From the NCBI GenBank assembly GCA_037200965.1, contig JBBCGK010000001.1, positions 433,992-497,991 on the forward strand: a DNA stretch of 64,000 nucleotides, in the 5' to 3' direction. The notes under the pieces were generated by a model. That model saw nothing but the letters and a program-made list of their open reading frames with translations. It made no database searches and had not been told where the DNA came from. How positions within the stretch are numbered: the stretch's first letter is position 1; the number at the start of each line of letters is the position of its first letter. The position numbers and the translations under genes were made by a program. The stretch comes from a bacterium (GTDB taxonomy: Bacteria > Patescibacteriota > Minisyncoccia > Phycocordibacterales > Phycocordibacteraceae). This document shows, in pieces, positions 51,780 to 53,334 of the stretch.

Positions 51780-51793
51780 TTTCCGTTAATCTT

Positions 51794-53134
51794 CTAAGTC
51801 TCTTGTTGAGACGCAACACAGCCCCACGCCGCTTTTACCGAGTCATAGATAAAGCCTACCGTCAGAACCTTGGATATAACCGTCGTGGTTGGCAACGCCG
51901 TGCCTTCTGCCACGAACGACGCCCCCCAGGTAATCGCCCGGGCCGTACCGTCGTCTTTGATCCTGAAGATGAGCGTCTGGAAGTTCGTGGGTGTACCGGA
52001 GAGATTTGTCGTCATCGACGTGATCGCGGTCGCAAGAGCAGTAATCGTCACGGCGTCGCACCCATCGCTATTCACTGTAGGGGTTGCCGAAGAAACAATC
52101 GTCGTTATGCGTGGAGTATTTCTCTTATTTGCAAGAGTCTGTGTACCATTGTTAGTCACGACACTGTCAGCGTTTGTGCCTGCAACCGAGATTCTCAAAT
52201 CTCCTGTTCCAACGGTAAGCACTCCTGAGGTGTGCGTTGCAACCCAGTTACCGTTACTAATGTTCCAGGTAAAACCAGTAGCACTAAAGAGATCGGCCCA
52301 TCCAAGCGCGGTCGTCCCAAGAGCGGCAATATCATTCGTGACCGGGGAAAGAGCGGAGGAGGTAAGTTGTATCGTTCCTGTTCCGTTGATAGCCAGACCA
52401 AGCGTATTGGTTGTAGGAAGGTAGAGGCGATTACCGGTAGCAGTTGAAGAGGTAGGAGCAAAGCCAGCCGCAGTTGCCAGCGATGCCAACGTCAAAGCTC
52501 CGGCGTCGGTCAAGGTTGCATTGGTGGATGTTGCTTGTGCGCCGCGCGAAGTACCATCGGACCGAAGTATAGATTCATCTGTGGCAAAAGTGGCGGCAGC
52601 GGTGACTACATTACTCGGTATATCGCTTGTAAGAGCGACGGTACCCGTGGACGCCGGAAGGGTAATGGTGTTAGTTCCAGCGATTGCCGTAGGGACGAGG
52701 GCGATGGTACCGGAAGTTGAACCCGAGAAGGTTACACCCTGGGTACCGGAAATGATGCCAGTGGTGTCAGCAATAAGCACTGCCGAGTTCTGGATCAGCT
52801 TACCAGTGGTAGTGTCGAAGCGGGCCACGGCGTTATCAGTTGCTGAAGCCGGGCCTACAACATAGGTAGCAAGGGAAGCAGTCGTAGGAATAACATAGCC
52901 GCTTTGGAGCGCTATAGCGATCGTTCCGGAAGTAGTGATCGGTACGCCGGATACCGTAAGTCCTGTCGGTACCGTAGCGTCAACGGATGTAACCGTACCT
53001 CCTCCTCCGGGGAGGTCTATAAGAAGCCTGTGCGTCGTCGGGTCTGCATATAGACGCACAGGCGTCTTGCCGTCAGCGCTTGAAGCTGCTATCAGCGTTG
53101 GAACATCGTTCTGGTCTCGGTAAGCATCAGCCAT
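51794..53134 (-). CDS. Phage tail-fibre-like protein (Ala/Thr/Gly-rich)
   Basis: N-terminal ...VPTLIAASSADGKTPVRLYADPTTHRLLIDLPGGGG... then long A/T/G/S-rich beta-fibre-like sequence. Confidence 0.55.
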   Translation of the reverse strand: MADAYRDQNDVPTLIAASSADGKTPVRLYADPTTHRLLIDLPGGGGTVTSVDATVPTGLTVSGVPITTSGTIAIALQSGYVIPTTASLATYVVGPASATDNAVARFDTTTGKLIQNSAVLIADTTGIISGTQGVTFSGSTSGTIALVPTAIAGTNTITLPASTGTVALTSDIPSNVVTAAATFATDESILRSDGTSRGAQATSTNATLTDAGALTLASLATAAGFAPTSSTATGNRLYLPTTNTLGLAINGTGTIQLTSSALSPVTNDIAALGTTALGWADLFSATGFTWNISNGNWVATHTSGVLTVGTGDLRISVAGTNADSVVTNNGTQTLANKRNTPRITTIVSSATPTVNSDGCDAVTITALATAITSMTTNLSGTPTNFQTLIFRIKDDGTARAITWGASFVAEGTALPTTTVISKVLTVGFIYDSVKAAWGCVASQQET

Positions 53135-53136
53135 AA

Positions 53137-53334
53137 TCAGGTACTTTGTACGAGTAATTCCCCGGCACTATTGGCGTAGAGCACCACAGGCGTCTTGCCG
53201 TCAGCGCTTGAGACAGCCATGAGTGCAGGAACAAAGTTTGCGTCCCGCAGATCGTCTACCGGCCCAAAGTCCGACCCGGTAGTGTCGTCGTCCGCCATAA
53301 GCGCATGTGTTGAAGGGTCAGCAACGAGTTGCAC
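53137..53334 (-). pseudogene. Duplicated N-terminal fragment of the tail-fibre-like gene, abutting repeat 4
   Basis: ...RDANFVPALMAVSSADGKTPVVLYANSAGELLV is paralogous to the N-terminus of the 51794-53134 gene. Confidence 0.4.

Follow-up and report, generated by a model that had tools for sequence, protein, structure and literature searches.

A 1.5-kb fragment of phage structural genes as a probable spacer in a Cas1-Cas2-associated repeat array

How does a kilobase of phage-like DNA come to lie between two perfect copies of a short repeat beside cas1 and cas2? The usual view of Cas1-Cas2 is of a measuring integrase storing memories of about 30 bp, and CPR organisms are, to our knowledge, thought to be nearly devoid of CRISPR. 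In the 64-kb stretch of DNA analysed here (the window), which comes from a very small CPR (Patescibacteria) bacterium, a 36-nt direct repeat reading GTTGCACAACCTCCTTTTTACGAACGATCCTGCAGG on the plus strand occurs in six exact copies, where none would be expected by chance, starting at positions 38559, 40775, 51744, 53328, 54739 and 57678. Identity among the copies is confined to the 36 nt and the flanking sequences are unrelated. The features of the array are as follows.

38559 to 38594, minus strand: repeat 1, furthest from cas2, not degenerate
38595 to 40774, no strand assigned: cassette 1, 2,180 nt, cutting genes at both ends
40775 to 40810, minus strand: repeat 2, an exact 36-nt copy
40811 to 51743, no strand assigned: cassette 2, 10,933 nt, GC 0.596
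51744 to 51779, minus strand: repeat 3, 36 nt, reading CCTGCAGGATCGTTCGTAAAAAGGAGGTTGTGCAAC on the cas strand
51780 to 53327, minus strand: cassette 3, 1,548 bp, GC 0.541, third spacer from the cas2 side, bounded at both ends by exact repeats
53328 to 53363, minus strand: repeat 4, 36 nt, same sequence as repeat 3
53364 to 54738, no strand assigned: cassette 4, 1,375 nt, with a 173-aa ORF and a 218-222-aa ORF open at the repeat 5 boundary
54739 to 54774, minus strand: repeat 5, an exact 36-nt copy
54775 to 57677, no strand assigned: cassette 5, 2,903 nt, with ORFs of 523 aa and 154 aa and a patatin-like gene that extends into repeat 5
57678 to 57713, minus strand: repeat 6, the cas2-proximal (leader-proximal) copy
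57714 to 57745, minus strand: leader, 32 nt, from the cas2 stop codon to repeat 6
57746 to 58042, minus strand: cas2, 98 aa
58039 to 59094, minus strand: cas1, 351 aa

On the minus strand the order is thus cas1, cas2, the 32-nt leader and then the six repeats, and the stretches between repeats, counted from the cas side, measure 2.9, 1.4, 1.5, 10.9 and 2.2 kb and are mutually unrelated. The cas1 product matched Pfam Cas_Cas1 (E = 1.1e-63) and PADLOC Cas1 (E = 3e-68), and its E...H...D/E motif aligned with that of the solved Cas1 structure 7cr6; judging by this alignment, the catalytic motif of the window Cas1 is intact. The cas2 product matched PADLOC Cas2b (E = 9.4e-7) and Pfam Cas2 (E = 0.0034, under the gathering score). 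CRISPR arrays are defined by direct repeats of about 23-55 nt, and the six 36-nt copies fall within this range. The first-pass annotation had treated the segment between repeats 3 and 4 as a spacer; its coordinates, 51780 to 53327, are precisely the inter-repeat DNA, and only 32 nt separate the array that holds it from cas2-cas1. Pfam and PADLOC scans of the window found no effector or crRNA-processing gene, and no Cas4 or Cas6 gene lies near the array. Promoter and terminator sites predicted between 51.5 and 59.3 kb did not exceed the shuffled-sequence level.

Cassette 3 carries one intact gene and part of another.

51794 to 53134, minus strand: intact gene for a fibre-like virion protein, 446 aa, stop codon 14 nt from repeat 3
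53137 to 53327, minus strand: 3' part (about 63 codons) of an 87-codon phage gene, its 5' end removed by repeat 4

The 446-aa Ala/Thr/Gly-rich fibre-like ORF that had been described from the sequence is present and intact at the first of these positions. The protein begins MADAYRDQNDVPTLIAASSADGKTPVRLYADP and is composed of 19.3% T, 13.7% A and 9.4% G. A total of 2,337 homologues were found (best non-self E = 6e-119), many of them encoded on contigs of 38-42 kb. One of them, P0005 on phage contig L002, is 70% identical over 236 aa; this contig also encodes a large terminase (TerL, E = 6.5e-75), a portal and a major head protein, and the fibre homologue is placed between the major head protein gene and the adaptor and tail genes. 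The arrangement is the same in a second phage contig, L003. Relatives of the protein are also encoded by 379 IMG/VR stretches. The C-terminus matched PHROG 3030 (E = 9.5e-23), a family without curated function that is annotated 'unknown function', and the protein-level match to GenBank phages was likewise limited to the C-terminal 125 aa. Pfam and PADLOC returned nothing for the protein.

An AF2 monomer model had a mean pLDDT of 68, with both termini at 80-94; the confident regions were residues 1-40 and about 340-446, and the shaft between them was of low confidence. The protein appears to consist of a conserved N-terminal module of about 40 aa, a shaft rich in Thr, Ala and Gly, and a beta domain at the C-terminus (residues ~340-446). 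Tail-fibre, minor tail and head-fibre proteins of phages have a similar modular build of N-terminal anchor, Thr/Ala/Gly-rich shaft and globular C-terminal beta domain, and they too are encoded in the structural module of phage contigs of about 40 kb. In the viral protein library BFVD, 97 fold matches were obtained at E <= 1e-3; the top-ranked matches listed were all proteins of tailed phages, and several of them bear the name tail fibre or minor tail protein, such as the minor tail protein of Mycobacterium phage Tonenili (A0A1C9EHB0). Fold matches in the PDB were weak (best E = 1e-3, the top one being a capsid spike, Pa223), and a PDB sequence search with the family profile gave nothing significant. 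The relatives in phage structural modules, the 379 IMG/VR stretches and the BFVD fold matches together bear out the proposal that the segment is virus-derived. The more specific name of tail fibre fared less well. The protein is fibre-like, but because the L002 gene sits between head and adaptor genes, it may equally well be a head fibre or spike.

The ORF upstream of the fibre gene was listed with 65 aa at 53137-53334 on the minus strand and had been read as a duplicated N-terminal fragment of the fibre. The ORF and its similarity to the 446-aa N-terminus are real (20/28 identical, E = 2e-10), but the duplication gave way to another explanation: the ORF is the 3' two-thirds of a separate, conserved 87-codon gene. 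It aligned to residues 26-85 of the 87-aa proteins of L002 (E = 9e-6) and L003 (E = 1e-7), whose genes lie directly upstream of the fibre genes, and these 87-aa proteins hold two copies of the fibre-protein N-terminal module. Cassette 3, L002 and L003 therefore agree in having the 87-aa gene ahead of the fibre gene. Because its GTG start (53334-53332) falls within repeat 4, the 65-aa ORF is a truncated frame and not a small gene; the reading frame continues open into repeat 4. Since the ORF matches residues 26-85 of the 87-aa neighbour, cassette 3 starts in the middle of a gene. One entire gene is thus present in the spacer, as had been suggested, but it was not taken up as a unit; the segment is a random piece of genome in which the gene upstream is cut. 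Judged by its gene content, cassette 3 is a colinear fragment of a tailed-phage genome and not a gene-delimited cassette, because the upstream ORF is part of a cut 87-codon gene.

The search for a cognate phage did not turn up a near-identical one: the best DNA identity was about 70%, to metagenomic phage contigs. Nucleotide identity of cassette 3 to L003 and L002 was ~68-70% and amino-acid identity 57-70%, and GenBank phages gave no nucleotide match. We infer the donor phage from homology and synteny. Fibre-like proteins are known in bacterial genomes as prophage remnants, and the segment could in principle be such a remnant, or a native host gene merely lying between two repeats. This is very improbable: the phage-like DNA amounts to 1.5 kb only and ends exactly at both repeats, the neighbours are unrelated in origin (a cut SpvB gene on one side, the 173-aa ORF on the other), it is flanked by neither an integrase gene nor an att site, and the closest relatives are on phage contigs. 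The existence of phage homologues also disposes of a host surface adhesin lacking them, which had been named as the finding that would overturn a viral origin.

The sister cassettes are fragments as well. Cassette 1 holds two partial genes, the C-terminal piece of a pyrophosphohydrolase and the first ~20 codons of a P450, together with a PurZ-like gene and one of 250 aa; it gave a match to phrog_1211 (E = 6e-72). It is identical (0 mismatches in 2,180 nt) to L145 positions 7687-9866, which lie within an integrative element on a 4.0-Mb contig (JBBCBH010010880.1) of the same assembly. At this donor site the flanking genes are intact and neither the repeat nor any extended homology is present; the protospacer flanks on the cas strand read ...AGCAAAGCAA / spacer / AAGGTCGCC, and the 4-nt TTGC is common to the protospacer flank and the repeat start. 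At the start of cassette 2 are the C-terminal fragment of a recombinase-like gene and a TraD-like gene; at its other end an SpvB/FG-GAP gene is interrupted by repeat 3. Against plasmids the cassette gave only short matches of ~67-84%, to T4SS coupling-protein and HTH genes. Insertion of repeats into contiguous host DNA was considered and ruled out, as adjacent cassettes are unrelated and cut genes are not resumed across the repeats.

Since the source is a metagenome, and a 36-nt repeat breaks assemblies made at k = 31 (Logan contigs stop inside the repeats), unrelated contigs might have been misjoined at a short common repeat. Such an artefact is hardly credible. The donor DNAs would each need a 36-mer of their own, and the cassette 1 donor site has none. 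A second, separate NCBI assembly (L004) has everything between cassette 2 and cas1, both included, in unchanged order and differs at 4 of 15,962 nt (99.975% identity). Logan contigs from two runs bear the repeat sequence at both cassette ends; one of them, L001, equals window positions 51752-53355 at 100% and so contains cassette 3 with 27-28 nt of repeat per side. Furthermore, contigs of 138-1,083 kb carry equivalent arrays, and some of these contigs are from MAGs with names that suggest long-read assembly.

These equivalent arrays were reached through relatives of Cas1 and not by repeat matching; exact-repeat scans, with the 36-mer in metagenome contigs and a 25-mer in genome contigs, gave 0 matches each. 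The Cas1 relatives led to at least 15 other arrays. Fifteen arrays had 38 spacers of 140-10,933 nt (median 1.4 kb), those of the window measuring 1,375-10,933 nt. A homologous leader and a 36-38-nt repeat follow cas2 in 21 aligned loci, throughout which the leader-repeat junction ...ACnGGCT / CCTGCA is conserved; the window leader ends in ...ACGGACT, in match with it. Across the loci whose gene tables were read, conservation of neighbours was limited to cas1 and cas2, cas1 was followed by a gene of 94-117 aa, and no effector was found. Many spacer ends in the clade fall within ORFs: spacer 1 of L020 is one ORF open at both ends, and in L022 a 500-aa ORF that reads as DnaX begins at the spacer boundary. 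Spacers are not common to different lineages, and many loci have a single repeat only. The first-pass view of cassette 3 as the kilobase-scale analogue of a phage-matching spacer is strengthened by these clade-wide kilobase-scale arrays and by the exact 2,180-nt protospacer of cassette 1. Such arrays recur wherever this Cas1 clade occurs; the clade is widespread in CPR/Patescibacteria and was also found in MAGs labelled FCPU426 and 'uncultured proteobacterium'. Several arrays are on contigs of MAGs named MFD..., which we took, by isolate names alone, to belong to the long-read Nanopore Microflora Danica set (PMC12313526).

Taken together, we consider it probable (about 0.65) that cassette 3 is a fragment of a phage structural region held as a spacer of an effector-less CRISPR-type array, through capture by Cas1-Cas2 acting without a ruler. 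A piece of a tailed-phage structural region, comprising the last ~63 codons of the 87-codon gene, the whole 446-codon gene and 14 nt past its stop, would have been copied; the Cas1-Cas2 encoded beside the array would join both ends of this long dsDNA fragment to the borders of the leader-proximal repeat, and gap repair would then duplicate the repeat. The chemistry would be that of ordinary spacer acquisition minus the molecular ruler and trimming, with gene boundaries ignored. We infer both Cas1-Cas2 as the responsible enzyme and a leader-polarised acquisition. Characterised Cas1-Cas2 complexes measure prespacers of ~30-40 bp, and integration of 0.1-11 kb would therefore be unprecedented for a Cas1-Cas2 pair. 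For the clade as a whole, it is about as likely as not that it represents ruler-less adaptation by apparently mobile modules that archive 0.1-11 kb of phage, conjugative-element and other DNA with no linked effector. A PHROG scan of eight large ORFs from the spacers of other arrays gave 2 weak family matches only, and we therefore make no general claim that all spacers are phage-derived. A PRTase-like gene recurring in two arrays was not significant (E = 0.23).

A mechanism other than Cas1-Cas2 integration could have placed the inserts, by homologous or illegitimate recombination at the repeat or by a transposition-like activity of a mobile unit, with the repeats as hot spots. One MAG has three copies of the cas1-cas2-leader-repeat unit (1.45-1.5 kb) that are 99.8-99.9% identical but differ entirely in their flanks, and in L006 an 18-nt duplication flanks it; from these sequences the unit itself is apparently mobile. 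The TTGC shared between the cassette 1 protospacer flank and the repeat start points the same way, and because the unit behaves as a mobile ~1.5-kb cassette, a transposition-like process could contribute. As a full explanation this is nevertheless unlikely: a perfect duplication of the whole 36 nt, and nothing beyond it, brackets each insert, a footprint specific to staggered Cas1-type integration; the donor site of cassette 1 offers no repeat or extended homology; and the inserts are fragments and not whole elements.

The fibre ORF is intact and shares its direction with cas1-cas2 and with the remaining ORFs of cassettes 3-5, so that it could alternatively reflect selection for expression. 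CPR bacteria are episymbionts that need surface adhesins. In an integron-like form of gene capture, the repeats would be recombinase sites and the fibre would be kept for expression, for example as an adhesin for attachment to host cells, and the kilobase spacing is indeed akin to that of chromosomal integrons. This is decidedly improbable, as the window outside the cassettes contains neither a tyrosine nor a serine recombinase, and cas1 and cas2 are the sole conserved neighbours. Cassette 3 starts partway through the upstream gene, other cassettes stop partway through genes, genes in L005 are oriented opposite to the cas genes, and a fibre with a virion-anchoring N-terminal module would have no obvious partner when the rest of the virion is absent. 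The repeat also has no attC-like conserved hairpin: no hairpin was supported, the consensus fold of 24 repeat variants being a 4-bp terminal stem (-0.6 kcal/mol) with no covariation. An internal 5-bp stem spotted by eye was dropped as inconsistent.

Several known systems invite comparison. Like canonical CRISPR arrays, the window array has adjacent cas1-cas2, a short conserved leader, identical repeats, one full repeat bracketing each insert, and lineage-unique inserts whose sources are mobile elements (by homology a phage in the case of cassette 3, by exact match an integrative element in that of cassette 1). Canonical spacers are uniform at ~26-72 nt, whereas those of this clade span 140 nt to 10.9 kb with whole and truncated genes; unlike canonical CRISPR, the clade has no nearby effector, Cas4 or Cas6, many single-repeat loci and a seemingly mobile unit. 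Casposons, self-synthesising transposons built on a Cas1-solo 'casposase', share the Cas1-family integrase, kilobase-scale inserts, target duplication and varied genomic contexts. They carry TIRs, a family B DNA polymerase and target duplications of ~14-15 bp and move themselves; the window array has no TIRs and no PolB (none was found in the window), and it has Cas2, direct 36-nt repeats and unrelated foreign inserts. Chromosomal integrons, such as those with Vibrio repeats, likewise store foreign genes as kilobase-scale segments between similar short repeats beside an integrase gene. Integrons, however, have IntI, attC hairpins and single promoterless ORFs, whereas the window array has neither IntI nor an attC hairpin, its segments cut genes (cassettes 1, 2 and 3) and orientation varies across loci.

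As to function, the array might record mobile-element DNA that invaded the cell or was ingested, and could feed guide RNAs from repeat-adjacent ends or from long transcripts. An immune function is unsupported, because the window has no effector or crRNA-processing gene and the repeat no conserved hairpin. We suggest that the arrays may be read as a log of the organisms and mobile elements met, because cassette 1 exactly matches a co-resident 4-Mb genome. If the proposed capture is correct, it would be a new CRISPR-type mode of DNA capture, between casposon integration and canonical spacer acquisition, with cassette 3 as the phage-derived exemplar for the clade. It would change how the abilities of the adaptation machinery are seen and make these loci a living casposon-CRISPR intermediate; for CPR bacteria it could offer a route of horizontal gene acquisition, a record of contacts or a long-memory immune record. 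An integrase able to place kilobases of DNA at a fixed 36-bp target would also interest biotechnology. In the literature searched, there was no description of kilobase-scale spacers or of kilobase arrays with Cas1-Cas2 only in CPR. The 2025 classification used CRISPRCasFinder, an array finder that assumes short, uniform spacers, and finders of this kind would probably miss these loci.

An ancestral effector was sought near the orphan array L034, where two large neighbouring proteins gave no Cas matches and one has a CARDB domain. This array alone has normal spacing, with spacers of 37-39 nt.

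The 36-nt sequence GTTGCACAACCTCCTTTTTACGAACGATCCTGCAGG occurred in six exact copies in the window (chance expectation 0), and aligning them with 60-nt flanks limited the identity to exactly 36 nt. The interval 51780–53327 (cassette 3) is exactly the DNA separating copies 3 and 4. Its coordinates and the 446-aa and 65-aa reading frames proposed in the first-pass annotation were all real when the ORFs and repeat borders were located in the window. The array comprises the following features:

38559, 40775, 51744, 53328, 54739 and 57678, + strand: the 36-nt repeats R1 to R6, exact matches
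38595–40774, no strand: cassette 1, identical at 2,180 of 2,180 nt to L145 7687–9866, a stretch of another contig
40811–51743, no strand: cassette 2, 10.9 kb, GC 0.60
51794–53134, − strand: intact 446-codon ORF, start MADAYRDQNDVPTLIAASSADGKTPVRLYADP
53137–53334, − strand: 65-aa ORF, 2 nt upstream of the 446-codon ORF, its listed GTG start inside repeat 4
stop 32 nt beyond repeat 6, − strand: cas2, 98 aa (PADLOC E=9.4e-7; Pfam 0.0034, below threshold)
upstream of cas2, − strand: cas1, 351 aa (Pfam E=1.1e-63)

The order on the cas strand was cas1, cas2, leader, R6, 2,903 nt, R5, 1,375 nt, R4, 1,548 nt (cassette 3), R3, 10,933 nt, R2, 2,180 nt and R1. The inter-repeat segments were mutually unrelated, and genes were severed at their borders. 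This array was reproduced in three independent ways: by its copy in a second NCBI assembly (L004; 4 mismatches in 15,962 nt), by Logan contigs from two sequencing runs (L001, L147 and L148), with contig breaks inside repeats, and by a 960-kb contig of GCA_037975565.1 that includes the window (seen via L146). Such agreement between independent assemblies disfavours misassembly, as do equivalent arrays on large contigs and a cassette 1 donor site without the repeat. The E/H/D catalytic motif of Cas1 aligned with the solved Cas1 7cr6, and no effector-type cas gene was found in the 64-kb window. Housekeeping genes flank the array (TatD, S6, SSB, EF-P and RecA on one side, MetRS and GlyRS on the other), and relatives of the Cas1 carry labels such as Kaiserbacteria, Paceibacterota and Parcubacteria. 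We regard the bacterium carrying the array as a member of the CPR/Patescibacteria. Insertions interrupt its rRNA genes (1–2093 and 14762–20235), as is typical of CPR bacteria; the 23S model is spread over 4.3 kb, with a group I intron at 16313–16529, and the 16S matches in two separate pieces.

Threonine, alanine and glycine make up 42% of the residues of the 446-aa protein. A protein search returned 2,337 homologues, many on contigs of 38–42 kb. The homologue P0005 (70% identical) is encoded on the 39,959-bp phage contig L002, together with a large terminase (PHROG E=6.5e-75), a portal and a major head protein; its gene has head genes on one side and an SU10-type adaptor and tail genes on the other, and the arrangement on a second phage contig, L003, is the same. 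When phage databases were checked, 379 IMG/VR stretches also encoded relatives. PHROG 3030 (function unknown) matched the C-terminal 125 residues (E=9.5e-23), and cultured phages, for example cluster-C-like mycobacteriophages and a Methylophilaceae phage, share the C-terminal domain only. An AlphaFold monomer model built with 45 homologues was confident at residues 1–40 and 340–446 and poor in the shaft, the pattern that a trimeric fibre should give when modelled as a single chain. There were 97 matches at E≤1e-3 in the viral protein structure library BFVD; the top-ranked ones were all from tailed phages, under names including 'tail fiber protein', 'minor tail protein' and 'fiber'. PDB matches were weak, namely the Pa223 capsid spike (E=1e-3), the CBA120 TSP4 N-terminus and 6o38, deposited as a 'chaperone-substrate complex', which we take to be a tail-fibre/assembly-chaperone pair. 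We therefore call the 446-aa protein a phage fibre-like virion protein; 'tail-fibre-like', the initial description, is right as to the fibre, but tail fibre, head fibre or spike are all possible.

A spurious 706-aa ORF (50108–52228, + strand) results from a cut SpvB/FG-GAP gene whose reading frame continues across repeat 3 onto the strand antisense to the fibre gene. Stored gene tables (L004 and L149) contain this ORF but lack the fibre gene, which hides the phage gene from annotation-based screens. In another genome, a 7.7-kb spacer (L116 7360–15031) encodes large low-complexity proteins with no PHROG match, and a 554-aa Ser/Thr/Gly-rich protein in it shares a GTVTSV...TTSGT motif with the window fibre protein, which suggests a putative second independent capture of phage structural genes.

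The 65-aa ORF had been read as a paralogous duplicate of the fibre N-terminus. The similarity is real (20/28 identical, E=2e-10), but duplication of the fibre gene is ruled out by a match to a separate gene: in L002 and L003, a conserved 87-aa ORF lies directly upstream of the fibre gene and holds two copies of the ~40-aa fibre N-terminal module. The small frame aligned to residues 26–85 of these 87-aa proteins (E=9e-6 and 1e-7) and stayed open into repeat 4, so the 65-aa ORF is the 3' two-thirds of this neighbouring gene, cut at the repeat. With the cut gene adjoining the fibre gene as in L002 and L003, cassette 3 is thus 1,548 bp of phage genome in its original gene order, with one border inside a gene and the other 14 nt past the fibre stop codon; the segment, first taken for an entire gene, does contain the whole fibre gene but starts within the 87-aa gene. 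That it is a prophage remnant is disfavoured, since the phage DNA spans just 1.5 kb and borders exactly at the repeats. A search for the cognate phage gave no nucleotide match among GenBank phages and no donor; the best DNA relatives of cassette 3 were L002 and L003, at ~68–70% identity.

An exact match for cassette 1 was found. L145 belongs to a 4.0-Mb contig (JBBCBH010010880.1) from the window's own assembly, and the matching site is an integrative element with an integrase, AlpA, a relaxase and a TrwB-like gene, from which the 36-nt repeat is absent. The end genes are intact in L145 (a 297-aa kinase/pyrophosphohydrolase gene and a 402-aa P450 gene), whereas the array keeps the last ~105 codons of the first and the first ~20 of the second; therefore, transfer ran from the element to the array, and excision ignored gene boundaries. 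Cassette 1 and L145 form a spacer–protospacer match at kilobase scale, the strongest support for reading cassette 3 likewise. The first-pass annotation had called cassette 3 a kilobase-scale analogue of a phage-matching spacer; its repeat borders, its phage homology and the exact protospacer of cassette 1 support this, but its own donor was not among the sequences found. The right flank of the cassette 1 protospacer shares TTGC with the repeat start. The organism behind the 4-Mb contig may serve the CPR cell as a host or physical partner. Within cassette 1 (38604–39940; L145 7111–9032), a MazG/PRA-PH-type pyrophosphohydrolase fragment adjoins a short adenylosuccinate-synthetase homologue that matches PurZ-type PHROG 1211 (E=6e-72), a pairing known from phages making 2-aminoadenine (Z) DNA; here the pair lies on the integrative element, in a low-GC (0.485) island.

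At its start, cassette 2 has the C-terminal end of a recombinase-like gene and then a TraD-like gene; it terminates within the SpvB/FG-GAP gene at repeat 3. Its genes (a LysR regulator, GNAT, S1/P1 nuclease, non-specific endonuclease, ATP-grasp enzyme and TraD-like ATPase) look out of place in a CPR genome, and the cassette probably represents part of a conjugative element that belonged to a bacterium with a larger genome. At repeat 5, a patatin-like gene continues into the repeat, and one ORF of cassette 4 is also still open. Proteins of cassettes 2, 4 and 5 were found on the CPR contig and on close relatives of it, and nowhere else. Functional capture of an integron-like kind is disfavoured by these cut genes, by a repeat unlike attC and by the lack of a recombinase; the likeness to integrons is superficial only.

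Relatives of the Cas1 (52–88% identity) were fetched from genomes and metagenomes. At 21 aligned loci, cas2 was followed by a homologous short leader (...ACnGGCT) and a 36–38-nt repeat, CCTGCA...TCGCAAAAAGG...TTGTGCAAC. About half of the loci had a single repeat. Fifteen arrays with 2–8 repeats (the window, L012, L014–L016, L018, L020–L022, L026, L116, L125 and L139–L141) held 38 spacers of 140 to 10,933 nt (median 1.4 kb), for example 1,332, 1,379, 1,340 and 2,377 nt in a Kaiserbacteria MAG, 1,038, 1,429, 2,058, 1,472 and 2,873 nt in a Taylorbacteria MAG, and 140 to 4,007 nt on an 876-kb contig. Lengths of 1.2–1.6 kb, about the size of the cas1-cas2-repeat unit, were found for 12/38 spacers versus ~2.5 expected from a log-uniform spread, an excess that is indicative only with a bin picked post hoc. 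Several array contigs belong to MAGs named MFD..., which from the names alone we infer to be the long-read Nanopore Microflora Danica set (PMC12313526). No spacer was common to different lineages among the array spacers compared. Many spacer ends lay inside ORFs: one 673-nt spacer was a single ORF open at both ends, another started with a fragment that by eye resembled the C-terminus of a TraD/VirD4-type protein, and a 500-aa ORF reading as DnaX began at a spacer boundary, presumably without about nine N-terminal codons of the E. coli protein. In a Buchananbacteria MAG, an orphan array with a repeat of this family (L034/L138 16661–17892) had 37–39-nt spacers beside 351- and 471-nt ones; its sole Cas1 trace was a 53-aa remnant 6.6 kb off, with no recognisable effector near the array. 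The kilobase-spacer array is a property of a Cas1 clade, beyond one assembly, and cassette 3 is a phage-derived example of it.

Each insert had a perfect, full-length repeat copy on both sides with no further duplicated sequence, cas1 and cas2 were the only conserved neighbours, and the leader-repeat junction was conserved, which together form a footprint of Cas1-type staggered integration. Integration would take place at the leader-proximal repeat and be followed by gap repair, and the Cas1-Cas2 of this array would integrate long double-stranded fragments, neither measuring their length with a ruler nor trimming their ends. If acquisition is leader-polarised, only two inserts would be younger than cassette 3. 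No repeat hairpin was supported. Since the fibre gene is sense relative to the cas genes and the cassette genes of another locus, L005, are antisense, orientation follows no rule. The array might act as a passive record, supply a trans-acting effector with guides taken from the ends next to the repeats, or serve gene acquisition; of these, a passive record or immune memory is our first choice, at low confidence. In its working the system resembles CRISPR adaptation, but its array fails the spacer length that defines CRISPR spacers and is without an effector; it is like casposons in inserting kilobase DNA, but differs by Cas2, direct repeats and no PolB. The literature searched, including the 2025 CRISPR-Cas classification, described no kilobase-scale spacers or Cas1-Cas2-only kilobase arrays in CPR, an absence that is no proof of novelty; that classification detected arrays with CRISPRCasFinder, which we expect would miss kilobase spacing.

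The adaptation module has the look of a mobile cassette in its own right. A unit of 1.45–1.5 kb, consisting of ~36–100 nt of upstream region, cas1, cas2, leader and first repeat (1,453 bp in the window lineage; 1,504 bp in FCPU426-type MAGs), was 97–99.9% identical between loci with unrelated flanks:

~9899–11402: unit in L020, L023 and L028 (three copies in one MAG), L021 and L027
57678–59130: unit in the window

Identity stopped precisely where the repeat ends, and these loci showed no target-site duplication around the unit. It is possible that a non-Cas1 mechanism of unknown kind made the inserts, and the sharing of this unit by loci with unrelated flanks, with three copies in one MAG, speaks for it; the repeat-duplication footprint is the ground for our reading of Cas1-type integration. 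At the single-repeat locus L006, the 18 nt AGGGAGTATGAGCGGGAT occurred twice (within 9959–9986 and 11409–11436), 14 nt upstream of the cas1 start codon and directly after the lone repeat, and this pair may have arisen by target duplication when the cas1-cas2-repeat unit inserted.
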